From Gammaproteobacteria bacterium (GTDB lineage: Bacteria > Pseudomonadota > Gammaproteobacteria > Ga0077536): a stretch of 64,000 nt of DNA. The notes beneath the pieces were generated by a model. That model was not told the origin of the DNA, made no database searches, and saw nothing but the letters and a program-made list of their open reading frames with translations. Below are positions 6,203-47,481 of this stretch, piece by piece (within the stretch, counting starts at the first letter, position 1; every line of letters begins with the position of its first letter). The position numbers and the translations under genes are program-made. The stretch is from contig JBLFWZ010000001.1 in assembly GCA_047611905.1 (NCBI GenBank), positions 15,455-79,454 of the forward strand, in the 5' to 3' direction.

Positions 6203-8008
6203 GTGTTAATTCAAACCGTCCTGTTGTCGGCGCTTGCCGCCGTTTTATCCGTTGCTGTTTTGGCCGCCGAGTACGAGGATGAAGTTCTCGTCACCGCAAC
6301 CCGCCAACCACTTGCACTGAAAGACGCATTGCCATCTTCGCAAGTGTTTACGCAAGACGATATCGAAAGGCTCCAGCCGAAAGATTTACCCAGCCTGCTC
6401 GGGCGCATGAGTGGCGTCAGTTACCGTGCCTCAGGTGGCCGGGGGTCCGTGAGTGGCGTGTTCATTCGTGGCGCATCGACGTCGCAATCGATTATTTTGG
6501 TCGACGGCGTGCGAACGAGTAGTGCCACGATTGGTGCCACGGCGCTGGAAGGCATTCCTCTTGAGTCAATCGAGCGTATCGAGTTAGTCAAAGGACCATT
6601 GTCTGGCTTGTACGGCGCAGATGCGATCGGTGGGGTCATCCAGATATTCACCAAGCAAGGTAAGCAGCAGCGCCTCACCCCAGAAATTCATGCGAGTTAT
6701 CGCACGGACGATACACAAGAATACTCAATCGAAGCTGGTGCGGGTAACGAGCGCGGTAGGGTTCATGCGACTTTTGCTTTCGAGAATTCTCAAGGCATCG
6801 ACCACACGTCGATCAAGACAGAAGGTAATGCGGATCGCGATGGCTTTGATGAGTTTGCCCTGAATGTGTCTGCAAGCTATCGAATCCTCGATGAACTTAA
6901 CGCTCAAGTTAATTTCCTGCGTACTGACGCCTACAGCGAGTTCGATAACCTATTCGGAGACGGCACGGGTTTCGATGCCGATACTCAGGTCGAGACTAAC
7001 GCCTTGAAGCTCACCTACACGCCGAGCGAAAAATTGCGTTTGAGTTTCGGCGCAAGTCATTTCGTCGATGAGGCCGTGACACCGGCATTTTTTTCCGATA
7101 TTACCACTCGTCGGACGACTTACAATCTGCAAATCGATTACCAAGTTCACGATAAGCATTCAATTACCCTCGGAGCAGAATACTACGACGACAAGGTCGA
7201 TACCTTGGATAATTTCGTCGAAACCTCGCGAGATAACATCGGTGGTTTCTTCCTGTGGCAGCGACGTTATGGAAAATTATCGGCCGTTGGCAGCGTGCGC
7301 TACGACGACAATGAAGCCTATGGCGATGAGACAAACGGTAGTGTCGCACTGAAGTATGACGTTTTTGAAAGTTTAGCCGCAGTGGTTAGTTACGGCACCG
7401 CGTTTCGCGCGCCGAGCTTTAACGAATTGTTTTTTCCTGGTTTTGGCAACGTGAATGTCAGGCCGGAAGAATCGGAATCGTTAGAAGTTAGTCTGAAAGG
7501 TAACCACAGGGATGTTCATTGGCGGATCAGCGGGTACTACACGGACGTGAAAGATCTGATCGGATTCGATTTTGCGACGTTCACGGCAAACAACACATCT
7601 GAGGCGACCTTGAAAGGGGTCGAAGCGGAAGTGTCCTATTCCTACGCCGACTGGTTTTTTAGCGCGAATATGAACTATTTGAATGCACGAGACGATCGAC
7701 TTGATGTGTTCCTGGACGACCGCGCCGAATTTACAACCAACGTCGACGTTGGTTGTAAATTCGGTCGGCTGGATCTCTCTATGGACCTGCAAGCAGAAAG
7801 TGGACGCCACGACCGAAGTGGTACCGAGATCGATGGATTCGTTGTTCTAGGAACCGGCATCAACTATCGTTTTAGCGAGCGGTTTCGTATCGCCGCACGC
7901 CTCGACAATATTTTCGATGAGGACTACACCTTGAACTTAGCCACAGCGCGCGATGTATTTCGCACCTATGGCCGCACCGGTCTCATCAGCCTGCACGCAG
8001 CATATTGA
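6203..8008 (+). CDS. btuB: TonB-dependent vitamin B12/corrinoid outer-membrane receptor
   Basis: ORF 5918..8008; start placed at in-frame GTG 6203 after AAGGGGAG RBS so that the riboswitch is leader; signal peptide then TonB box DEVLVTATR, plug domain (IERIELVKGPLSGLYGADAIGGVIQIFT) and beta-barrel; about 600 aa like BtuB. Confidence 0.85.
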   Translation: MLIQTVLLSALAAVLSVAVLAAEYEDEVLVTATRQPLALKDALPSSQVFTQDDIERLQPKDLPSLLGRMSGVSYRASGGRGSVSGVFIRGASTSQSIILVDGVRTSSATIGATALEGIPLESIERIELVKGPLSGLYGADAIGGVIQIFTKQGKQQRLTPEIHASYRTDDTQEYSIEAGAGNERGRVHATFAFENSQGIDHTSIKTEGNADRDGFDEFALNVSASYRILDELNAQVNFLRTDAYSEFDNLFGDGTGFDADTQVETNALKLTYTPSEKLRLSFGASHFVDEAVTPAFFSDITTRRTTYNLQIDYQVHDKHSITLGAEYYDDKVDTLDNFVETSRDNIGGFFLWQRRYGKLSAVGSVRYDDNEAYGDETNGSVALKYDVFESLAAVVSYGTAFRAPSFNELFFPGFGNVNVRPEESESLEVSLKGNHRDVHWRISGYYTDVKDLIGFDFATFTANNTSEATLKGVEAEVSYSYADWFFSANMNYLNARDDRLDVFLDDRAEFTTNVDVGCKFGRLDLSMDLQAESGRHDRSGTEIDGFVVLGTGINYRFSERFRIAARLDNIFDEDYTLNLATARDVFRTYGRTGLISLHAAY

Positions 8009-34752: not shown

Positions 34753-35205
34753 TTATGGCGTGGCTGAGAATGCTTGTTTAAAACAGCGCAACGTTAAACT
34801 TGAGCGAGTGTTCTTGATACCGCGCAATTTGTAGAGTTTGTTAAGTAGAAAGTCCTCGTAACCCTTAGTTCCGGCGACCGCTACTTTCATAAAACAGTCG
34901 TACTCACCGGTTAGGAGATACGCTTCTATCACTTCGGGCATGCCTGCAACGGAGTTCTCGAATTCGGTAAAAATTGCCGCATCGTGACGTTCGAACATAA
35001 TTTCAATTATTGCAGTGTCAGGCAGGCCAATTTTCTCTTGATTGATCACCGTCACGTATCGTTGGATGACGCCGTCCTTTTCCATGCGCCGAACTCGCGA
35101 CCAGCACGGGCTAGTCGACAAGCCTACTTTTTCCGCCAACAAAGGGTTTGTGATGCGAGCATTGCTATGCAAAGTCTGCAAGATCTTTCGATCTACCTTA
35201 TCCAT
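34753..35205 (-). CDS. Lrp/AsnC family transcriptional regulator
   Basis: 150 aa; HTH_AsnC (DRKILQTLHSNARITNPLLAEKVGLSTSPCWSRVRRMEKDGVI) plus RAM domain; GGAGAG RBS. Confidence 0.85.
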   Translation of the reverse strand: MDKVDRKILQTLHSNARITNPLLAEKVGLSTSPCWSRVRRMEKDGVIQRYVTVINQEKIGLPDTAIIEIMFERHDAAIFTEFENSVAGMPEVIEAYLLTGEYDCFMKVAVAGTKGYEDFLLNKLYKLRGIKNTRSSLTLRCFKQAFSATP

Positions 35206-35381
35206 ACCGAGCTCTCCGCTACTGATATTAAATCAAGAATAGAATTATATTTTGAATATATAGAAAATAACGGAAATATATCCTTAAAATACATTCTATT
35301 GACGTATATAGAGAATAATAATCCTTAATTACTAGTTTATTATGCTTGCAGCGATTCTGCGGTGTGAACGAGGCAAGACAA

Positions 35382-37055
35382 ATGACCGATTCTGCACAAC
35401 GAAGCGGCGCCAATATTTTGCTCGAAGTACTCGAAACAGAGGGCGTTGAGTACATTTTTGGTAATCCGGGCACGACCGAGTTGCCGTTGATGGACGCGCT
35501 TATCGACAGACCTGGCATTCACTACGTGCTTGGACTCCAAGAAGCCACCGTCGTCGCAATGGCGGATGGTTACGCCCAAGCTTCGGGCAAACCAGGCTTC
35601 ATTAATTTACATACCGCGGGAGGCTTGGGGCACGGTATGGGCAATTTGCTGAACGCCTATACGTCCGGTACGCCGCTTGTGGTGACCGCCGGTCAACAAG
35701 ATTCTCGCCATTCAATTACTGATCCTTTACTGCAAGGCGACTTGGTCTCAATCGCGAAACCAAGCTGTAAGTGGGCCGCCGAAATTACCTCGCCCGAGCA
35801 AATACCAATCTTGACCCATCGTGCGTTTCAAGACAGCCAGGCGACACCGTCAGGCCCGGTATTTCTCTCGTTACCCATGAATGTCATGGAAGAGTCGAGC
35901 GCCATTCAGATGTCTGAGGTGTCACACGTAGACCGGCGTCCCGTCGCTCATTCGCTACCCGAACTTGCCCAAGAATTGGTGGCAGTGATGCCAGGTAAGT
36001 TAGCGATCATTGCAGGTGACGAGATCTCAGCGAATGACGCTTACAAAGAAGTCGTCGAACTTGCCGAAATTTTAGCGGCTCCGGTATTTGGATCTTCTTG
36101 GCCCGCACATATTCCTTACCCGACCAGCCACTACTTGTGGCAAGGAAATTTGCCGACAAAAGCCGCCGACATCGCGATCGCCATGGAGGGTTTCGATTGC
36201 GTGTTCGCGCTCGGAGGAAAATCGTTTATCACGATCCTCTATTCCGAAGAGTCTGCCTTACCTGAGGGTTGCGATTTATTTCAACTTTCGGTGGATGGCC
36301 GCGATCTGGGTAGAACCTATCCGTCGAAACTTTCCGTGGTCGGAGATATCGAGTATTCGCTGAACGAACTGAACGCCCATCTCAAAGAAAAGATCGGTGC
36401 AAGGGACGAAGCATACGCGGTGGAACGGCTGCGCAATGAAAGGGTATTCGAAGACCGTAAAAAAGCCCTGCACGATCAAGCCGAAGGGCTGGAAGACAGG
36501 CTCGTTATTCACCCCCTTGTTGCGGCTCGAGAATTAGTCGCCGCGATCGGGCAAACTCCAATCGTGGACGAAGCGATCGCCACAGCCGCCCACGTACGCA
36601 AATTTCTACATAACAATTACACGCGGCAATATTCGTTCTTGCGCGGCGGCGCCTTGGGATGGGGCATGCCTGCTGCAGTCGGCTTTTCGTTAGGGATCGG
36701 ACGCAAACCGGTTGTTGCGTTAGTTGGCGATGGTGCGGCGATGTATTCTCCGCAGGCATTGTGGACGGCGGCGAACGAAAAGCTGCCTGTTACTTTTATC
36801 GTCATCAACAATCTCGAATACAATGTGCTGAAGAATTTTATGCGCTCGCAGCCGCACTACAATTCGACTCGCACGGGAAAATTTATCGCGATGGATATTA
36901 TTGATCCCATGATTGATTTTCAGGCATTGGCGAAATCAATGGGTGTCGTGGCACAACGAGTCATCGACGCGCAGGAGATTCAATCGACGGTTGCGAGTGC
37001 CATCGGTTCAGGCAAACCGAATTTGATTGAAATCGTGGTTAGCGCAGAGCAGTAA
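35382..37055 (+). CDS. thiamine-pyrophosphate-dependent enzyme (benzoylformate decarboxylase/acetolactate synthase-like)
   Basis: About 557 aa; TPP N-terminal pyrimidine-binding domain (IFGNPGTTELPLMDAL), central domain, C-terminal GDG...NN TPP/Mg motif (VGDGAAMYSPQALWTAANEKLPVTFIVINN). Confidence 0.8.
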   Translation: MTDSAQRSGANILLEVLETEGVEYIFGNPGTTELPLMDALIDRPGIHYVLGLQEATVVAMADGYAQASGKPGFINLHTAGGLGHGMGNLLNAYTSGTPLVVTAGQQDSRHSITDPLLQGDLVSIAKPSCKWAAEITSPEQIPILTHRAFQDSQATPSGPVFLSLPMNVMEESSAIQMSEVSHVDRRPVAHSLPELAQELVAVMPGKLAIIAGDEISANDAYKEVVELAEILAAPVFGSSWPAHIPYPTSHYLWQGNLPTKAADIAIAMEGFDCVFALGGKSFITILYSEESALPEGCDLFQLSVDGRDLGRTYPSKLSVVGDIEYSLNELNAHLKEKIGARDEAYAVERLRNERVFEDRKKALHDQAEGLEDRLVIHPLVAARELVAAIGQTPIVDEAIATAAHVRKFLHNNYTRQYSFLRGGALGWGMPAAVGFSLGIGRKPVVALVGDGAAMYSPQALWTAANEKLPVTFIVINNLEYNVLKNFMRSQPHYNSTRTGKFIAMDIIDPMIDFQALAKSMGVVAQRVIDAQEIQSTVASAIGSGKPNLIEIVVSAEQ

Positions 37056-39465: not shown

Positions 39466-40220
39466 TCAATACTTTGCCTGTAGCCAGTGCCAGCTGTAGC
39501 CGGCACAACCGGCCGCGTAGGAATTTGTCCTCGCATCTTTGGAATATAACTCACGACGCAGTGGACTTAAGCGGCGGGCAACTGCCGCAGCTTCCGCGAA
39601 GAATCGGGCTGCGGGGCCGGTCTCATGGTCACCTTCGCTTCCCAAGCTATTAGTAGACCGGGGAGGTTTGAAGCTGGGGCGGGCTTTGCTCTACCCATAG
39701 GACAAATCAGCCTCACCTTAGGACGAGTTCGAGCGCGAGGAGTCATTCCGATGAGCGTATTCGATGATGATATCGAACGTATTGGTCGAGGGTGGGTCGA
39801 TATCGGGTTTTAACTTTGCGATGTTAATTTACGCGTCCGATTAATCCACCGGTTGTATCGAGGCTTGAACTGGCGCTTGATCCTTGACGGCCGGAATATA
39901 GACGTACACCGCGGCTCAAATATTAAATGCAGGTACCCTCGAAATCGGATCAATCGAACGTGCAAATCAACAGCTTCAAGTCCTGTCGCCACTCCCATCC
40001 CGCGTTTACGATCTAACCCACGTCAATTACACTGCCGGAAATAGTAGTTACCGGTGGTCCTAAGTAAGTGTTAAGCAGTCGAGGCCCGGATGGAAAAGCG
40101 GACTGTCGTTTGCATTACTCGCGACCGTCGCATAACGACCGAGGCGGTGTGAAAAGAGGATCGTCAGCGTATCGTTGATGTGAGATCATGTCGTGGTAGC
40201 AACGCACGAGAAAATAGCGG

Positions 40221-41234
40221 ATGAAACGGTTTATCGAAGGTGACCACCGAGATCAGAAAACGCTGTTACCGGATTGTCTCGAAGATTTCGTATCCGAAGA
40301 TAATCCTGTGCGGCTAGTTGATGTCTTTACCGATGGTCTGAACCTGGAGCAACTGGGTTTTGAAAGTGCGTCGCCGGCGGCAACGGGTAGACCGGGCTGT
40401 CATGCTGCCACACTGCTGAAGCTTTACGTCTATGGTTATCTCAATCGGATCCAATCAAGCAGACGCCTAGAGCGCGAAGCGCAACGTAACCTGGAGTTGA
40501 TGTGGTTGCTACGACGCTTGGCACCCGACTGAAAGAAAAACTCGTAACGGCGAAGGCGCAGGCCGAGAAGCTCCAGGACATTGGCGAGCAACTGAAAGGC
40601 ATTCCTGGTGGTCAACTATCGTTGACTGATCCGGACGCTCGCTCGATGGCAACCAGTGGGCGCGGCAGTGGTGTGGTGGGTTACAACGTTCAGATAGCAG
40701 TAGACAGTAAACATCACATGATAGTTGCCCATGAAGTCGCCAATGTGGGCCATGACCGTGCATCGCTTCATACGATGTCGGAACAGGCGCGTGACGCGAT
40801 CGGCGAACCCGGCTTAATCGCAATCGCTGATGGGGGGTTACTACAGCGGCAAAGAGATCGTCGCCGGTGACGCGGCCGGCAGTTAGACACTAACTACCGA
40901 AGACTCACACCTCCTGTAATCGATCAAAGGGACGCTTTGAGAAACAAGATTTTCGTTATCTCTCGGAAGTGGATGGATACGAATGCCCGGCGGGCGGGCG
41001 CGCGATCTATCGATATGCAAGTGAGGAGAAAGGTCAGGCCGTTCGCAGGTACTGGTCACCGGCTCTGGCTCCTGCTTCGCTCTACCTCCCCCATCCATGG
41101 GGTCGACGCACTTTCCGACTAAGACGCTACCGAAGGTCAGTACTGAGATGAGTTTGCATGTCTTGACGTATAACTTGAAACGTACGATGAAGATCTTCGG
41201 AATTGGAACCCTGATAGGGGTGGTCGGGGCTTGA
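40221..41234 (+). mobile_element. degraded IS1182-family insertion sequence (transposase pseudogene)
   Basis: N-terminal MKRFIEGDHRDQKTLLPD...YLNRIQSSRRLEREAQRNLELMWLL, frameshifted middle (DPDARSMATSGRGSGVVGYNVQIAVD), out-of-frame CPAGGRAIYRYASEEKG piece and C-terminal EMSLHVLTYNLKRTMKIFGIGT tail; about 1 kb, i.e. internally deleted relative to a typical IS of this family. Confidence 0.7.
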
Positions 41235-41578
41235 GTCCCGATCTATTTTCTGGTTGGCGACGTTGTATTAGCGAAATATTACTCGCTAAGATATTTGCGC
41301 GAAGTTACGATCGTCTGCGACGGGACCAAATCTCTCTTTTCACACAGCCTCGACCCGTAACGGACCGTCGCATACCGACAAAGTTATCTTGCCGCAAACT
41401 CTAAAGCCGTGTCCCAGGACAGCGACAAAAGAGCCTGTTAGGATGAGCTGCAAGATGATTTCGCAAGGGTGCGAACATGTTGCCAGTCGCCTATTGGCAG
41501 GGAAGCCAGTGCCGGTGTTGCTGCGTCGCACTATGTCTTGAGTACGTAACCCACCTTACGAGTGAGTCACTGAGTAAA

Positions 41579-42457
41579 ATGACCACCACTATCCTTTTTT
41601 ACAACACCCATCTGTTCCTCGACACCCACCCGGTGCGACGTACGATTCTTGACGATGAGGAGAGAACGGACGCGATCGTCAGATCGATTCTTCGCCGGCG
41701 ACCCGAGATTGTCGCGCTGTGCGAAGTGTGGGCGGAGGCGCGTGCGTCCCGCGTGGCCCGAGGGTTGGAACGAGACTATCCGTTCCACTTCCGACCCGAG
41801 ACCCGGGCGGGATTTGCACTCTCTTCGGGGTTGCTGCTGATGAGCCGGCTCCCGATACGGAAGGCGGAGTTCACCCCGTACTACGACTCCCCCGATCACC
41901 GTCGCGCCGATATGGGGTTCGTCACCGCGGCTCTCTCCAGACCCGATACCGACGAACTCACTTGCCGCTTGATCATGACCCACGACCAGGCAACCTTTGA
42001 CGACGATGTCGAACGATACGCCAAGATCCGTTCTCAAAACCGCACTCGAATTATCCAACGAGCCAACGAATTCCCACCCGACAATGTGCCGCTCATCGTG
42101 ACCGGGGATTTGAACGTTATCGGTGAGACGACGGAGTATGAATCCATGCGCGAGCAGTACGAGGACCTCGGTCTGATCGACATGTGGATGACCCATCACA
42201 GCGAGTCGCCTTCCGCCCCGACAGCGCCTGAAGGATTGACGTACAGCGGCTCCGCCAATCCTTTGATCGAGGCGTTCGACGGCAAAGAAATGGCGCGCTC
42301 GGAAGAACGCCTCGACTACGTTTGGGTGTCGGCGTCGACCCGGCCCGGCTGGCGCAAGTGTTCGGTTGAACGTCACGCCTACGAGTACCGGCATTCGGCA
42401 ACCGAAATCTGGCCGGCTTCCGATCACTACCCGCTGGAGGCCTCGCTGGACCTTTGA
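41579..42457 (+). CDS. endonuclease/exonuclease/phosphatase (EEP) family phosphoesterase (sphingomyelinase-C-like fold)
   Basis: Start at MTTTILFYNTHLF; catalytic motifs LCEVW, TGDLN, SDHYPL; lies in the GC-rich block. Confidence 0.65.
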   Translation: MTTTILFYNTHLFLDTHPVRRTILDDEERTDAIVRSILRRRPEIVALCEVWAEARASRVARGLERDYPFHFRPETRAGFALSSGLLLMSRLPIRKAEFTPYYDSPDHRRADMGFVTAALSRPDTDELTCRLIMTHDQATFDDDVERYAKIRSQNRTRIIQRANEFPPDNVPLIVTGDLNVIGETTEYESMREQYEDLGLIDMWMTHHSESPSAPTAPEGLTYSGSANPLIEAFDGKEMARSEERLDYVWVSASTRPGWRKCSVERHAYEYRHSATEIWPASDHYPLEASLDL

Positions 42458-42785
42458 GAACTGCCGCCCAGCCCGTCGGATCGGGTGAAGAGTTCTGAAA
42501 AGCGGGGTGAGTTGGTGCTGATTGGTCACTAAGGTGCACTCGAAACCCGCACCGCCGAGCAACATCGGTTACCCTATCGACTCGCGATCGCACACATGCA
42601 TGGTTGCATGGTCGAGGATCGCGCTGGCTGCGAGGCCAGCTGTGCTGAATCCAGAGCGCAATGTGGCGCTTTCCCTTGATTCTAGGTACTAAGACCTACT
42701 CGGGACGCCCGAGGACGACTGATCTCGTCCGGTCTCCGGCCGACGGTTTTTATTTTTACGAACGACAATTCGCAAGGAGCCGCAG

Positions 42786-44027
42786 ATGCCGCGACAGATT
42801 AGGGATTTCATGCCGGAGGAGCTCGAATTTCAGATGTTCGTGCTGGACGAGCTGGCCGACGAGCTCGCAGCCCAAGGCGCTGACGTGCTCAAGCTCACGA
42901 TTGGCGTGGCGGACCTCCCTACGCCGAAGGTGGTTCTCGATCGCATCATGGAAAAACTGGTCGATCCGGACTTCGTGCGTCGCGTATACCCCGAGGGACT
43001 TCCCGAGCTTCGTGAGGCAATTGCCGCCCACTATCATCGCCGCTATCGCGCAGACGTCTCGATGGACAACGTCATCGTCAATACCGGCACCTCACCGCTA
43101 TTCCGTAACATCTTCCAACTTGTCGCCTCGCCCGGTCAGGAAATCTTGCTGCCGCGTCCGTATTACGCGCTCTATGCATACTGCGCTACCCTCGCCGGAG
43201 CGACGGTAAAATTCTACGGCATCGACCTCGACACGAAGCGCGTCGACATGGACTCGTTTCGGCGTAACTTCTCTGCGGAACGAACCGCCCTGGTCGTCAT
43301 TAACTCGCCAGGCAATCCCATTGGGAACGTTGTCACCGAGGACGAATACCGCGAGATTTATCGCATCGTCGACCGCCAGGCCTATGTGCTGAACGACGAG
43401 ATCTACAACAACACGATGTTCTACGACGAGTTCCGCACCCCCTTGGAATTCCTGCCCGAGTACAACGAGGAGGTGACGATCGTCACTAACAGCTTCTCCA
43501 AAGGTTTTCGCCTCTATACGAAACGCGTCGGCTTCGCGATCGTGCCGAAGGATCTGCAACGCAACCTACGCGTAATGCAGCAACATACCTTGCTCTGCAC
43601 TGATCCTTGCTACCAATATGCGATGATCGGCGCCCTGGAAGACGACGCTAGCCCCGAAGAGCTAAACCGGGTATTCCGCAGCCGGGCCGAATATACGACG
43701 AGCCAACTCGCTGATACGGGGTGCACCCCCATCGCCGCAGATGGCGGGTTCTACGCAATGCTGCGGTGCGAGGACTGGAACAATTCGCTGGGCTTTGCCT
43801 CCTCGAAGGAGCTTGCCCGGGATATATTGGAGAAAGCCCATGTCGCGGTCGTCCCCGGCACCGATTTCGGGGTGCCGCACGATCTGCGGTTGTCGTTTTG
43901 CTGCGACCGATACACGGTCGCAATCGACCGGTTGAAAAAATACTTCAGCTCTCAACGCGCGGTTGGAGGAGCAACGCGGTCCAACAGTGAGCCAAGTATA
44001 CTCACCTCGGAAGCAACCCAGAGATGA
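42786..44027 (+). CDS. class I/II PLP-dependent aminotransferase
   Basis: 413 aa; PLP-lysine motif SFSKGF, NSPGNPIG; AAGGAG RBS; stop overlaps the next ORF start (ATGA). Confidence 0.8.
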   Translation: MPRQIRDFMPEELEFQMFVLDELADELAAQGADVLKLTIGVADLPTPKVVLDRIMEKLVDPDFVRRVYPEGLPELREAIAAHYHRRYRADVSMDNVIVNTGTSPLFRNIFQLVASPGQEILLPRPYYALYAYCATLAGATVKFYGIDLDTKRVDMDSFRRNFSAERTALVVINSPGNPIGNVVTEDEYREIYRIVDRQAYVLNDEIYNNTMFYDEFRTPLEFLPEYNEEVTIVTNSFSKGFRLYTKRVGFAIVPKDLQRNLRVMQQHTLLCTDPCYQYAMIGALEDDASPEELNRVFRSRAEYTTSQLADTGCTPIAADGGFYAMLRCEDWNNSLGFASSKELARDILEKAHVAVVPGTDFGVPHDLRLSFCCDRYTVAIDRLKKYFSSQRAVGGATRSNSEPSILTSEATQR

Positions 44028-44338
44028 AGGCAGCCGTGGTCGCGGCTGGAATTGGCGCTGCATTCGGAAATTCGCGGACTCTCAACCTAACCGATATCCT
44101 CTTGCATTTTGATGGCCGATCGCTCTGCTGTCGCTACGTCGATGCGCTGAATCATAGCGGTATTGAGGAACCAGTGCGCGGCGTCGGATTCAACCTGGAC
44201 GGGATCGATTACTCATTGGACGTCGTGCGGACAAAAGCCGAAATCCTGCCGCGTCTCCGCGGCTCGATCCGCCCCGCCTGCCCCAACGAGGTGACCGATG
44301 TCGTGACAGGCCGAATGCACAAACACGAACGATGTTAG
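44024..44338 (+). CDS. hypothetical protein (104 aa), translationally coupled
   Basis: ATGA overlap with the aminotransferase stop and ATGTTAG overlap with the LicD-like start; GC-rich codon usage like its neighbours; no recognisable domain. Confidence 0.45.
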   Translation: MKAAVVAAGIGAAFGNSRTLNLTDILLHFDGRSLCCRYVDALNHSGIEEPVRGVGFNLDGIDYSLDVVRTKAEILPRLRGSIRPACPNEVTDVVTGRMHKHERC

Positions 44339-45624
44339 ACATCCAGGCCGATGGGCTTGTCGGCATCGCTATCGGCGTTGTCCTCTACGCGGCGACCTAT
44401 CTGTCGTTCGTTCGGATTCTGCGATTTCCTAGAAACTGGCTGCGTCCCGATCTCTCGGCATTGCTTCCCACGGGTGGGCTCGCCGCAATGCTGCTCGCGC
44501 ACGTGGCGCTGAGCGAAGGGACCGACATGGTCGCCCTGGGGGTGGCGGCCGGCTTGCTTGGCCTCTTGTTCTACACTATCGCGGCCCCGGCGATGGCCTT
44601 CCGACCGGCTTCCCGCCCCATCGAGTTCCTGGCCCGACACGGGGACGCGGCGGCTCTTTTTATCCTCGCACCAGCGGCCATCGCCGGGTATTTCATCTCG
44701 AATTTGCCACTGCGGGGGGCGCTCGCTGCCGCCGCGACCATCGAGCTAGCGTGGTATCTACAGCGCCTCCGGGCCGACTGGCAGCGTCCGCTATTTCAGA
44801 TTCTGGGTCCCGACCTGGTGGTTCTCGAGACCCAGGCCAAGGGGGATATTGAGGGCTTCGCAAAACGCCACGGCATCGGCGAGCTGGTGCTGTCACACGG
44901 TGCGGTCGGTTGGCGCGGCTGCGATAGGTCTACGTCGCCATGTCCGTTCAATCTCTATGTCAATCGCCTGGGACTGAATACCGCGCCCTGCTGCCGCGAG
45001 CGTATGAAAGATATCTGCCACGCAGTTGGAGGCTGGCTCGAGGACATGGGAATCGTCTATTGGCTCGAAGGCGGCACGTTGCTCGGGGCAGTGCGCGAGA
45101 ATGGCACTCTTCTCCAGTGGGAGGATGACGTGGACGTATCCGTTGTCCTCGACGACGACCGCGCTTGGGATGCACTGGTGACGGGGGTTGCCAAGCGTGG
45201 TGCTCGCGATGGGTATTTTGTGGACGTCTTCAAGCGAGGGGGGCTGATCGCGATTTCCCACGCCTTCCCCCGGCGCGCGCCCCTGCGCTGGGAGAACTAT
45301 CGACTGCGCGGAGAGATCCGGCTCGATCTGGCCGTATACCGCCCCGCGCTTAGCCAAGGGGAACCCGTGCTCGAGAGACGCTCGTCGAAGGGCTCCATGC
45401 CCGCCACCGACAGTGGGGGCTTCGGGGTGGCACGCGAACTCGTCTTGCCAACCTCGACCATTAGTCTGCTTGGCCGTGATTTCGCCGCCCCGGGGCGGCC
45501 CGAGGATTATCTGCGTGTCCTATATGGTGACTTCAACCGAATCGCGTACTCCTACGTAGACGCCGGACCTGCCGAGGCCCGCCGCGATCTCGACAGTGCC
45601 GCGCCTCCGGGGTCAGGCGGCTGA
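44332..45624 (+). CDS. membrane-anchored LicD-family phosphotransferase
   Basis: 430 aa; four N-terminal hydrophobic helices then LicD nucleotidyltransferase-fold motif YWLEGGTLLGAVRENGTLLQWEDDVDV. Confidence 0.7.
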   Translation: MLDIQADGLVGIAIGVVLYAATYLSFVRILRFPRNWLRPDLSALLPTGGLAAMLLAHVALSEGTDMVALGVAAGLLGLLFYTIAAPAMAFRPASRPIEFLARHGDAAALFILAPAAIAGYFISNLPLRGALAAAATIELAWYLQRLRADWQRPLFQILGPDLVVLETQAKGDIEGFAKRHGIGELVLSHGAVGWRGCDRSTSPCPFNLYVNRLGLNTAPCCRERMKDICHAVGGWLEDMGIVYWLEGGTLLGAVRENGTLLQWEDDVDVSVVLDDDRAWDALVTGVAKRGARDGYFVDVFKRGGLIAISHAFPRRAPLRWENYRLRGEIRLDLAVYRPALSQGEPVLERRSSKGSMPATDSGGFGVARELVLPTSTISLLGRDFAAPGRPEDYLRVLYGDFNRIAYSYVDAGPAEARRDLDSAAPPGSGG

Positions 45625-45752
45625 AGTCGTCAGTACGCAATCCGATAAAGCAGAACTGCAGGACACGCATGAATTGATGCAGCGCCGATCTTCGTAGCCT
45701 CGCGCAGTGGCAGCAGCAGATAAATCTAACGGGTTGATTCTAAAAATCGTAA

Positions 45753-45983
45753 CTTTTTTTATTTACGATGAGATCATCACGAGATTTCAGCGATGCTGAG
45801 GCCGCGCTGTCCTTGCTCATCGAAACGTTGGGCGAAGAGAGAATACTGTTTGGCACGGATTATCCTTTTCCTTCGGGCGACACGACACCAGGTAAATTAA
45901 TCGCAAATCATGGGGCTTTGAACGACGAGCAAAAAGACCGCCTACTGAAAGGGAATGCTAAAGCGTTTTCTCGGTTGGGTTAG
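45753..45983 (+). pseudogene. C-terminal fragment of amidohydrolase-2 (PF04909-like) gene
   Basis: Only about 75 codons open after a TAA; FGTDYPFP motif typical of amidohydrolase-2 C-terminus; no N-terminal part present. Confidence 0.55.
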
Positions 45984-46744
45984 TAGAGAGGAACACGATG
46001 CGGTTCGTATTTGTACACCGCGGCTAGCACTCGAGAATGTCAAACCGCCTCGGACTTTGGCGCTTGATGCGAATGCCAAGTGATCACGAGGCGCGCGTAA
46101 CTAACTGTGGTCGCAAAGTCCCGAGCCGACAGACAGCGTCAGAGAACGCCGAGGCCTAGATAGGTTAAGAATTGTTGGATACGTGCCCTCTGTTAGGGGT
46201 CTATCCGTTTGGCGCGGTATCTCCCGGCAGGTGTCTAACAAAGCACGAGGTAGGAAACCGCGGAGTCGAGCTTCTCCGCAAGCGCTGTGGAGCCAAGATC
46301 ACAAAACATGACCGTAATTTGACGGCGCTTGGCTTCAGGTGGTAACGATTGCATGGCCTGCTTCGTAGCAGATTGCTCTACAGGTCGCCCAGCGTCTCAT
46401 CGTCAAGTTCAAACTCCCGCTTGAGCGCTCGACACGACATACGCCCAGACTGTTGGAGCAATGCGGTGGCTTGTTTGGCGATTTCGGAAAACTTCACCGA
46501 CTCGACCCCCTCTCACTCGGTCGGGACATAAAAGCAGGAAAGTCGCTTCAAGACAATCATATGACGGGTTAGGACGCGAACACTGAAATTGAGCGTCCGA
46601 TTGTATATATCTGTACTCAATGACTGGCGTCGCGATGGCGTCCGCCTAATAACATTAAACAATCATCATCCATCGGGGATAAAACCACGCCTACCGGAAA
46701 CGGAATGGAGATATTTTCGCTTACAGCAACGTCATTTATAAACT

Positions 46745-46818
46745 TCCCGAGCGAAGGCGACGTTATGTCTGCGACAAGTAATCCCGAGCGAAGGCGACGT
46801 TATGTCTGCGACAAGTAA
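46745..46818 (+). repeat. perfect 37-bp tandem duplication (2 copies)
   Basis: CCCGAGCGAAGGCGACGTTATGTCTGCGACAAGTAAT at 46745-46781 and 46782-46818; duplicates RBS, start and first six codons of ORF 46802. Confidence 0.9.
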
Positions 46819-47194
46819 TTTAGAGGATGAGGTGACGCGCGAAATAACCGGCGCGGTCTTGCTTACGATGAACTTCAAAACGACTCGCATGAAAATCGGA
46901 ATTTATACCAGCGCCGCTAGTGTATTTTCGGAACAGGGTGACTACTTAAACGGTGAAGGCAGTGGATGTTCTGAAAACACTGGCGATCACAAATGGCGAG
47001 TGCGCGGCCACGACATATTGTCCGATGGAAGCATTATTGCGGCGGGAGGCGAAATGCGTCTTGCAACCCGGACCTATAGCGCCATTGAACATACCGAGAA
47101 TGTCTCTTGTTGGCCGATTTGCGTCCGTCCAAACATCATTTCCTTGTTGCTTGAACTTCCGTTTAGCGGAAGCGGGTTGAAGAGCCTATGGTAA
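46802..47194 (+). CDS. hypothetical protein (130 aa)
   Basis: ATG preceded by AAGGCGA; no recognisable domain; lies in a region of gene debris, so may be a decaying gene. Confidence 0.25.
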   Translation: MSATSNLEDEVTREITGAVLLTMNFKTTRMKIGIYTSAASVFSEQGDYLNGEGSGCSENTGDHKWRVRGHDILSDGSIIAAGGEMRLATRTYSAIEHTENVSCWPICVRPNIISLLLELPFSGSGLKSLW

Positions 47195-47481
47195 ATTAAT
47201 ATCCATCCGTCAGCATTGCCGGAAATGATAATTATCGGCAATGTTGACGGATGGAACAAATCCACGCCAGTCGACCAAAACATCTCTCAAGATTTCAGAT
47301 ATCTCCGTCCCATGATGAATTAGCAGCGCACCTAACAATGGGATCAAGACGACGTGTTAAAGTCGAGATCCTTCGGGAGACTTCGCTCTTTCCCCTCGGG
47401 AAAGGCCACGATGACCGGCGGGTTCTGAGACTTACATCGAACCCCGCTCACTGGCGTTATGAAACTTCGAGGGACGTTCGC

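Follow-up and report, generated by a model that had tools for sequence, protein, structure and literature searches.

The closest described relatives of the locus considered here are pathways that activate a head group and then transfer it. In the Lic1 system of Haemophilus and Streptococcus pneumoniae, the LicA kinase and the LicB permease accompany the LicC cytidylyltransferase, which activates, and the LicD transferase, which transfers. In the Pnt pathway, Ppm, Ppd, and AEPT act before PntC, which makes cytidine monophosphate (CMP)-activated 2-aminoethylphosphonate (AEP), and LicD-like phosphotransferases have been noted near pnt genes (Rice et al. 2019, PMC6697681). The LicD-type enzyme Mf1 of Mycoplasma fermentans uses cytidine diphosphate (CDP) donors to place phosphocholine and phosphoethanolamine on a membrane glycolipid, and the structure nearest to it is FKRP (PMC11982090). 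FKRP and fukutin are eukaryotic members of the LicD family that transfer ribitol phosphate. Here we describe a block of ~4.1 kb in a 64-kb stretch (64,000 nt) of Gammaproteobacteria bacterium contig JBLFWZ010000001.1, referred to below as the window, within which all positions are counted unless a locus handle precedes them. The block carries genes for an EEP phosphodiesterase, an aminotransferase (AT), and a membrane-anchored LicD, together with the remains of a cytidylyltransferase gene. With a probability of roughly 0.55, we interpret it as a degenerate, mosaic, and mobile variant of the known Lic/Pnt activate-then-transfer pathways.

The block is a discrete unit at 41562-45650, delimited by homology to other copies (L numbers denote the loci compared). 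Its parts and its leader are as follows, where dN/dS is the ratio of nonsynonymous to synonymous substitution rates.

41359..41578, + strand: upstream leader of the block, common only to copy L094; in L002 and L126, homology begins ~20 nt 5′ of the EEP ATG (blastn, alignments)
41579..42457, + strand: EEP phosphodiesterase, sphingomyelinase-C-like, 292 aa (PF03372, fold match, conserved start)
42458..42785, + strand: spacer between EEP and AT, 69% identical to L002, below the 88 to 90% found across the whole block
42786..44027, + strand: AT, class I/II pyridoxal phosphate (PLP) enzyme resembling class Ib aspartate aminotransferase (AspAT) (PF00155, PDB AspAT match)
44024..44338, + strand: pseudogene remnant of a PntC/LicC-like cytidylyltransferase (NTP_transf_3; profile match, dN/dS ~1)
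44332..45624, + strand: membrane-anchored LicD-family phosphotransferase, 430 aa (PF04991, WEDDxD motif, FKRP-like fold)
45625..45650, + strand: 3′ tail of common homology and right edge of the block; homology to L002 stops ~27 nt past the LicD stop codon, and homology to L094 stops at the stop codon

The block shares with Lic1 the logic of activation by a LicC-type enzyme and transfer by LicD, in that the gene canonically partnered with its LicD matches LicC (1JYK) at 1e-9 and the LicD Pfam domain and acidic motif are present. It differs in that LicA and LicB are absent from the block (no choline kinase or permease domain was found among the scanned block open reading frames [ORFs]), the LicC-type gene is dead, and an AT and a sphingomyelinase-like enzyme are attached instead. 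The likeness to the Pnt pathway lies in the partner nucleotidyltransferase, which is nearest to Tde-PntC, and in five loci of the LicD family that are co-linear with a PhnW-type AEPT and a PepM fused to a nucleotidyltransferase (PepM~NTP), one of them with a Ppd-type enzyme as well. The window itself, however, is without Ppm, Ppd, and class-V AEPT, its PntC-like gene is dead, and its AT is of class I rather than class V.

The same block with the same edges is present in at least four unrelated genomic contexts at 84 to 90% nucleotide identity, and because the flanks of these copies are unmatched, its horizontal transfer, already suspected in the initial annotation of this DNA, is well supported by the sequence comparisons. 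Two metagenomic contigs of 2.4 to 2.9 Mb (L002 and L003) carry the genes in identical order with LicD 89% identical. Nucleotide homology between the window and L002 is confined to the block, at 88 to 90% identity, and the flanks are unmatched even at the protein level. Further copies were found in L093, L094 (a 1.0-Mb contig), L095, L126, and L142. In pairwise comparisons among L002/L003, L094, L126, L093, L142, and the window, homology was limited to the block (81 to 90% nucleotide identity) and the flanks were unrelated. The edges fall ~20 nt before the ATG at 41579 and 0 to 27 nt past the LicD stop codon, and L094 alone has 200 nt more of the leader in common, reaching back to 41359. At least five copies, from different genomes, keep the genes in one order. 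The GC richness that had first drawn attention to the locus was borne out in sliding windows: GC content is 0.600 in the block versus 0.529 in the rest of the window, and this is the window maximum, as no other 4.1-kb sliding window, of 599, equals it (mean, 0.535; standard deviation, 0.018). GC at third codon positions is 0.65 to 0.72 in the block genes and 0.50 to 0.62 in the flanking genes. Across contexts, the GC content of the block is 0.58 to 0.615 in each, and that of the flanks ranges from 0.52 to 0.61.

The last gene of the block belongs to the LicD family by profile, motif, and modeled fold, and it is thus a predicted phosphotransferase. The match to PF04991 scores 32.4 bits (cut-off, 22.6), with only residues 239-272 aligning; the acidic motif W263-E264-D265-D266-x-D268 is among the 70 invariant columns of an alignment of 46 family members, the window protein being one of them. 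An AlphaFold model (mean predicted local distance difference test score [pLDDT], 80.9) shows five long N-terminal helices, three to four of them strongly hydrophobic, then a linker and an alpha/beta domain. Among PDB structures, FKRP chains were the only matches with an E value of <1e-3 (E ~2e-9, probability 1.00), including the complex with CDP-ribitol. The LicD identity, together with the DxD residues by which it was to be checked, therefore stands. FKRP aligns over ~252 columns at 21 to 24% identity and has been solved with CDP-ribitol and with CMP, but it is a eukaryotic enzyme with another donor and acceptor and another N-terminal domain. The Mf1 family, NF045866, is the only NCBIfam family that matches both the block LicD and the short LicDs described below; the block protein nevertheless scores 22 bits against a cut-off of 225, and the 240-position profile has no counterpart of the membrane domain. 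This polytopic N-terminal domain of ~150 aa also sets the block LicD apart from Lic1, and the short LicDs seen here (~300 aa; L089, L127) are without it. Homologues of the block LicD form a large family (~433 aa, ~60% identity) in marine metagenome-assembled genomes (MAGs), mostly of Alpha- and Gammaproteobacteria. The linker that precedes the catalytic domain also holds four cysteines (C197, C204, C220, and C221) that are invariant in the 46 sequences. These may make up a metal site; among the entries for FKRP, whose structure the protein matches, is one of zinc-peak data (6l7s).

The 104-aa ORF upstream of LicD, initially thought to have no known domain, can be recognized as what is left of a PntC/LicC-like cytidylyltransferase gene, now a pseudogene. 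Its counterpart in more distant LicD loci, which overlaps the LicD start, encodes a 265- to 270-aa NTP_transf_3 protein (here, the partner NTP). The 104-aa ORF aligns to the N terminus of this full-length partner (blastp E value, 7e-12) and to its residues 228-245 and, against a profile of 54 full-length partners, to positions 6-66 (E value, 5e-13) and weakly to positions 235-255. An alignment of all block copies reveals one ancestral deletion that joined residue ~47 to residue ~198 and removed ~150 core codons. L142 retains the ancestral junction, "...GIEEPHRDLIVTSGREKFRFEDVTRFPGIEIDYAVDIERANAEFLP", and secondary in-frame deletions followed, of 45 nt in the window lineage and of more in L002; independent deletions in the window and L002 remnants, considered at one stage, were superseded once L142 and the other copies had been aligned. 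The catalytic consensus is GXG(T/S)RX4-8PK (PMC6697681). Full-length partners read GVGARLG...PPK at this site versus GIGAAFG...LTD in the window, so that the Arg and the Lys are both lost. Over its full length the remnant has a dN/dS of 0.98 to 1.20, next to constrained neighbors, and this neutral evolution together with the lost catalytic residues identifies a pseudogene. The public record MFT4560319.1 labels the ORF "choline kinase", a misleading name for a fragment of a LicC/PntC-like nucleotidyltransferase. The NTP gene is dead in every block copy, the locus holds this internally deleted remnant in place of a functional LicC-type cytidylyltransferase, and decay of the NTP beside an intact LicD recurs elsewhere (L008, L011, L015, L025, and L041).

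Although its product is dead, the reading frame of the remnant has stayed open. On the five-copy tree, from which L095 was left out as the sole frame-broken copy, the expectation is about five nonsense substitutions, but not one has occurred (P ~0.007), and the internal gaps of 39, 6, 3, and 144 nt are all multiples of three. The four ORFs of the initial annotation (EEP 41477-42457, AT 42786-44027, the 104-aa ORF 44024-44338, and LicD 44332-45624) are all present, as are the overlaps read from the sequence, ATGA for the AT stop and the start of the 104-aa ORF and ATGTTAG for the end of that ORF and the LicD start. The last three genes are therefore co-oriented with overlapping stop and start codons, and the single operon proposed for them stands as a prediction from this arrangement. 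The remnant probably persists as a spacer: ribosomes finishing its ORF would be brought to the LicD start codon that it overlaps and would reinitiate there. A strictly conserved open frame was also considered, and that idea is weakened by the frameshifted remnant of L095.

Loss of the activating gene has not released its neighbors from constraint. Since the NTP deletion is common to all block copies, the dN/dS of LicD among them (0.20 to 0.25, or ~0.22) accrued after the loss, a pattern of substitutions that shows LicD to work without a cis-encoded NTP. EEP, AT, and LicD have all been under purifying selection through a synonymous divergence (dS) of ~0.25 to 0.47 after the deletion.

What the LicD family does where its partner is intact bears on the donor. 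A full-length NTP lies intact directly upstream of the membrane LicD in 59/83 loci, and its closest solved relative is Tde-PntC (6PD1; 2e-13 in a full-length alignment), followed by LicC. Tde-PntC is an AEP-specific cytidylyltransferase (PMC6697681). A PehA-like ester hydrolase of the sulfatase family (NF045661, 587 bits, below the cut-off of 900) is found downstream of LicD in ~12 loci, and in five of the loci (L017, L050, L053, L066, and L074) NTP, LicD, PehA-like, PhnW, and PepM~NTP genes lie in a row, with the phosphoenolpyruvate (PEP) mutase and PhnW exceeding their curated cut-offs. L053 (L053:8204-17450), the one of the five in which a Ppd-type enzyme was looked for, is co-linear for polyprenyl synthase, NTP, LicD, PehA-like, PhnW, PepM~NTP, and a Ppd-type thiamine pyrophosphate enzyme. 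By gene content, these five loci appear to place LicD inside complete clusters for AEP synthesis and activation that hold two nucleotidyltransferases, with Ppd confirmed in L053. Because such clusters hold two nucleotidyltransferases, the stand-alone NTP would be dispensable, which would explain its loss. The PntC-like NTP and the membrane LicD constitute a conserved and apparently uncharacterized module of marine bacteria. Our literature search returned no report characterizing the transferase step of the Pnt pathway or a CMP-AEP transferase.

These neighborhoods raise a narrower version of the Lic/Pnt interpretation, in which the membrane LicD would move AEP from CMP-AEP and build phosphonolipids or phosphonoglycans. 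The donor would come from a PepM-fused nucleotidyltransferase elsewhere, letting the stand-alone PntC-like gene decay; the AT would act on phosphonoacetaldehyde or phosphonopyruvate, and EEP would cleave a phosphonate ester. The five co-linear loci, the recurrent PehA-like gene, the relationship of the NTP to an AEP-specific enzyme, and the LicD-like genes of published pnt neighborhoods all favor this proposal. So do L084, which is without a stand-alone NTP and has a PepM~NTP fusion downstream, and L011, which has an NTP remnant, though with only distant PEP-mutase-family ORFs (30 to 32% identity to PepM). A precedent exists in PalB-type AspAT-like enzymes, proposed to convert phosphonopyruvate to phosphonoalanine (PMC8942020). 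Other observations speak against restricting the pathway to phosphonates: tblastn with PepM~NTP, PhnW, and PehA queries gave no match in the 64-kb window, a PEP-mutase-family gene lies within 5 kb of LicD in only 7/83 loci (one of them the distant case of L011), and pepM was not found by any AT operon in flanks of up to 8 kb. In the partner NTP, moreover, the residue equivalent to Glu196 of Tde-PntC is Glu, but that equivalent to Glu104 is Asp, as in LicC. Naming the head group from these pocket residues was accordingly abandoned, the residues being mixed between PntC-like and LicC-like. We consider the phosphonate-specific version tentative, with about one chance in four of being right.

The AT offers a second line of evidence, through its own family. 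It matches PF00155 over profile positions 2-351 of 361 (189 bits), and its translation holds an SFSK motif, read as the PLP-lysine motif. The HisC/CobD-like assignment made initially does not hold: among PDB structures, AspAT 1o4s matches at 1.5e-45 versus 2.5e-13 for HisC 3hdo, and the 25 best NCBIfam matches include neither a HisC nor a CobD model. Nor does the protein cluster with housekeeping AspAT, since all 25 of these models score far below their cut-offs (the best, NF041091, at 196 bits versus 550) and the AT falls in a tight family of its own (~75% identity) that reaches into Chloroflexi MAGs. From these comparisons the AT is classed as AspAT-Ib-like, below the equivalog cut-offs of housekeeping AspAT. 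In the canonical operon of the family, the AT is followed by a ~638-aa fusion of NTP_transf_3 to a CobD-like PLP decarboxylase (NTP~CobD-like; best match TIGR01140, 177 bits, below the cut-off) and then by a short LicD of ~305 aa. This arrangement occurs in marine metagenomes (L100, L104, L118, L127 [L127:8001-12080], L131, and others), and variant loci carry an S-adenosylmethionine-dependent methyltransferase instead. The CobD-like enzyme is thus a separate protein of the canonical operon and is absent from the block.

To quantify the linkage, 24 non-redundant loci with at least 2.4 kb of sequence downstream of the AT were counted. A short LicD lies downstream in 14 and a membrane LicD in 2, with neither in the remaining 8; the NTP~CobD-like fusion is present in 18 AT loci. 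Residence beside LicD-family genes in 16/24 informative loci indicates that the AT family is truly tied to LicD-type pathways, as far as gene neighborhoods can tell. In L150 (L150:6617-9836), the AT is preceded by a separate remnant of an NTP, in which profile positions 5-70 run directly into 240-275 and the Arg is kept, and is followed by a PehA-like hydrolase 74 to 78% identical to the LicD-associated PehA-like genes, and in L113 (~7740-7935) an NTP fragment lies upstream of the AT with no LicD. The L150 and L113 remnants are independent of the block remnant, with a different deletion junction (70|240) and the catalytic Arg kept. Given this independence and the PehA-like gene behind the AT of L150, the AT and pieces of the NTP-LicD-PehA module have recombined more than once.

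By analogy, the likeliest product of the AT is an amino-acid phosphate or phosphonate, which a decarboxylase would convert to the head group. In Campylobacter jejuni, the PLP pair Cj1437/Cj1436, a transaminase and a decarboxylase, makes serinol phosphate, and ethanolamine phosphate from serine phosphate, for surface decoration (PMC12409886). The AT and CobD-like decarboxylase of the canonical operon can be likened to this pair by function; the C. jejuni products, however, are amide-linked to glucuronate with no LicD involved, and the decarboxylase is absent from the window. Judged by gene content, the AT, NTP~CobD-like, short-LicD operon looks suited to making, activating, and transferring an amino-alcohol phosphate, with a CDP-activated amino alcohol formed de novo, and our literature search found no description of it. 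A SerA-like dehydrogenase, considered as support for a phosphoserine route, was found in one locus only (L104) and was set aside.

The EEP phosphodiesterase had been drawn as a 326-aa ORF from 41477. Because conservation across copies begins ~20 nt upstream of the internal ATG at 41579, the gene most likely spans 41579-42457 (292 aa); relative to L094, the 5′ extension of the annotation is thrown out of frame by a 1-nt indel. EEP scores 56.9 bits against PF03372, and its sole NCBIfam match is a weak one to sphingomyelin phosphodiesterase TIGR03395 (22 bits versus a cut-off of 248). The top 16 PDB matches of its AlphaFold model (pLDDT, 85.7) are all sphingomyelinases C (E ~3e-15; template modeling score, 0.66 to 0.75). 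The predicted structure thus resembles sphingomyelinase C in fold, with a score below that required for the equivalog family. Sphingomyelinases C such as Bacillus cereus SMase, SmcL, and Staphylococcus aureus beta-toxin cleave a phospho-head group from lipid; EEP differs from them at 16 to 22% identity and in that no signal peptide is present from the conserved start, for which reason the enzyme is probably cytoplasmic. Its dN/dS is 0.18 to 0.30 among four copies. The family is small, numbering 36 proteins at E ≤1e-10. A 57%-identical EEP in L145/L146 is convergent to an intact NTP-LicD pair, 39 nt apart and with the AT absent; other homologues of EEP stand alone.

Because the AT adjoins LicD-family genes in most informative loci and EEP adjoins LicD in this second arrangement, gene linkage supports the assignment of AT, LicD, and the phosphodiesterase to one phospho(no)-amino head-group pathway. 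In our working model, LicD would use a CDP- or CMP-activated donor and pass on its small head group, an amino-phospho(no) group akin to phosphoethanolamine or AEP, to a membrane-held acceptor (lipid, glycolipid, or lipid-linked glycan). The activated donor would be supplied by a nucleotidyltransferase encoded elsewhere in the genome, as the block has no working one and so is not self-sufficient. The AT would supply or drain the amino head-group pool, and EEP would remove the head group and thereby allow turnover or remodeling.

The initial annotation had instead proposed a self-contained module for decorating lipopolysaccharide (LPS) or capsule, with a HisC/CobD-like AT and a functional 104-aa microprotein. 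Its LicD identification, coupled ORFs, and horizontal origin were confirmed, and its idea of a decoration module survives insofar as linkage backs a head-group pathway of AT, LicD, and phosphodiesterase. The microprotein is a cytidylyltransferase remnant with a dN/dS of ~1, however, the AT is AspAT-like, and the block, which has no activating enzyme, cannot stand alone. Inspection of the flanks turned up no glycan-synthesis genes, the window as a whole not having been annotated. With a polytopic LicD membrane domain and a phosphodiesterase of the lipid-cleaving sphingomyelinase type, the evidence leans to an acceptor embedded in the membrane and perhaps to a phosphonate as the head group, and LPS or capsule is not indicated. 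We regard this self-contained model as highly improbable.

A more extended proposal joins these threads. The membrane LicD and its PntC-like partner would be a widespread module of marine Alpha- and Gammaproteobacteria that transfers AEP to membrane lipids or lipid-linked glycans, and the block would be a mobile derivative with a recruited AT and esterase that relies on a PepM-fused NTP elsewhere; separately, the AT/NTP~CobD-like/short-LicD operon may be an undescribed route to a CDP-activated amino alcohol. We hold this proposal to be speculative, with odds nearer to one in five.

A rival to a working pathway is that the block may be a decaying leftover of a once-complete one, its gene adjacency reflecting shared descent and hitchhiking and its three intact genes kept for unrelated reasons, the AT for example as a general transaminase. 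None of the copies retains a live activating enzyme, scrambled fragments of insertion sequence (IS) and genes surround the block, and the AT, with a dN/dS of 0.08 to 0.15 among block copies, is far more constrained than its neighbors at 0.2 to 0.3; the AT family, moreover, does without LicD in 8/24 loci, and L113 pairs its AT with an NTP fragment alone. Against such a relic stand the purifying selection on EEP, AT, and LicD since the NTP deletion and the order kept in at least five copies, the independent recurrence of both AT-LicD and EEP-LicD linkage in other arrangements, and the preservation of the remnant frame and LicD-start overlap beyond neutral expectation. We judge the relic explanation unlikely.

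Several of our results nevertheless weigh against the preferred reading of the block as a degenerate, mosaic, and mobile Lic/Pnt variant. No working nucleotidyltransferase, decarboxylase, kinase, or PEP mutase was found in the 64-kb window, so the pathway is incomplete there and supply in trans has to be assumed. The co-occurrence sought for the gene set holds among the block copies, which keep its order, but not beyond them: an AT or EEP was found near LicD in 0/80 species-representative LicD loci (flanks of up to 10 kb per side), and, judged by these neighborhoods, the EEP/AT/LicD trio is confined to one block lineage and is not a widely conserved module. The AT loci devoid of LicD count here too, and an AT 88% identical to that of the block (L088) has no LicD nearby. 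The pocket residues of the partner NTP are mixed, the frameshift in L095 indicates that an open remnant frame is not strictly required, and promoter and terminator scans, including of the EEP-AT spacer, returned nothing above shuffle level, leaving the block without a recognizable promoter.

On both sides the block is bordered by debris outside the unit, in agreement with the initial description of a decayed IS1182-type element on the left and a truncated amidohydrolase on the right.

40121..41371, strand not assigned: decayed IS1182-family element, left flank (terminal inverted repeats and transposase fragments)
45768..45983, + strand: C-terminal Amidohydro_2 fragment, 71 aa, right flank, matching only profile positions 223-286 of 289

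The left element has a DDE transposase with a DUF772 N-terminal region and terminal inverted repeats, as expected of the IS1182 family, and the DNA weakly resembles plasmid sequence that carries the annotation IS1182 family transposase. Its transposase fragments lie in broken frames (40221-40532, DUF772; 40502-40870, DDE_Tnp_1) between inverted repeats of 38 nt that are 76% complementary (40121-40158 and 41334-41371), and the element is decayed and nonfunctional. Movement of the block by this IS was rejected, as no IS trace lies beside the other copies and the remnant is specific to the window. A plasmid search with the block gave weak IS-related matches only and no plasmid carrying the block; no tRNA lies within the window, and short direct repeats at the block edges are at the chance-expected level. 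The Amidohydro_2 fragment is absent beside the other block copies, and the luciferase-like and amidohydrolase genes of the flanks, at 31% identity or less, are not orthologous to those of L002 and L145, for which reason synteny was dismissed. A glycan cluster of Clostridioides difficile type A flagellin was considered as an analogue and dropped, the paper giving no usable gene functions.

Other features of the surroundings were recorded. The ~1.3 kb separating the amidohydrolase fragment from the intact gene that comes next (45984-47250) is without an ORF of >130 aa, has a GC content of ~0.49 to 0.54, and is probably further decayed DNA. In this ORF-poor stretch before the luciferase-like gene, a perfect 37-nt tandem duplication (46745-46818; TCCCGAGCGAAGGCGACGTTATGTCTGCGACAAGTAA, two copies) overlaps the start of an ORF at 46802-47194. 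The luciferase-like monooxygenase gene has its start codon, at 47251, inside a hairpin at 47202-47255 (25 nt, 88% complementary, 4-nt loop), and a 25-mer 80% identical to the hairpin repeat lies just left of the IS remnant, at 40030-40054. These 25-mers at 40030 and 47202 enclose ~7.2 kb comprising the IS, the block, and the gene fragments, and they could reflect chance or the limits of a larger island. A marked trough of low GC (0.42 versus a window mean of 0.53) lies at 34800-35400.

For the block proteins, the analysis corrects three public annotations. In the NCBI records (MFT4560317-20, from a "Gammaproteobacteria bacterium" MAG), the "choline kinase" is a pseudogene remnant, the "hypothetical protein" is a membrane LicD, and the "aspartate aminotransferase" represents a family dedicated to head-group pathways. 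For marine bacteria, it exposes two conserved and apparently uncharacterized modules, the PntC-like NTP with the membrane LicD and the AT, NTP~CobD-like fusion, and short LicD. The remnant ORF may exemplify a dead gene kept open only for translational coupling of the next gene. Phosphonates are a major pool of marine organic phosphorus. The membrane LicD family is a concrete candidate for attaching activated phosphonates to cell-surface molecules, a step for which our literature search found no report identifying such enzymes.

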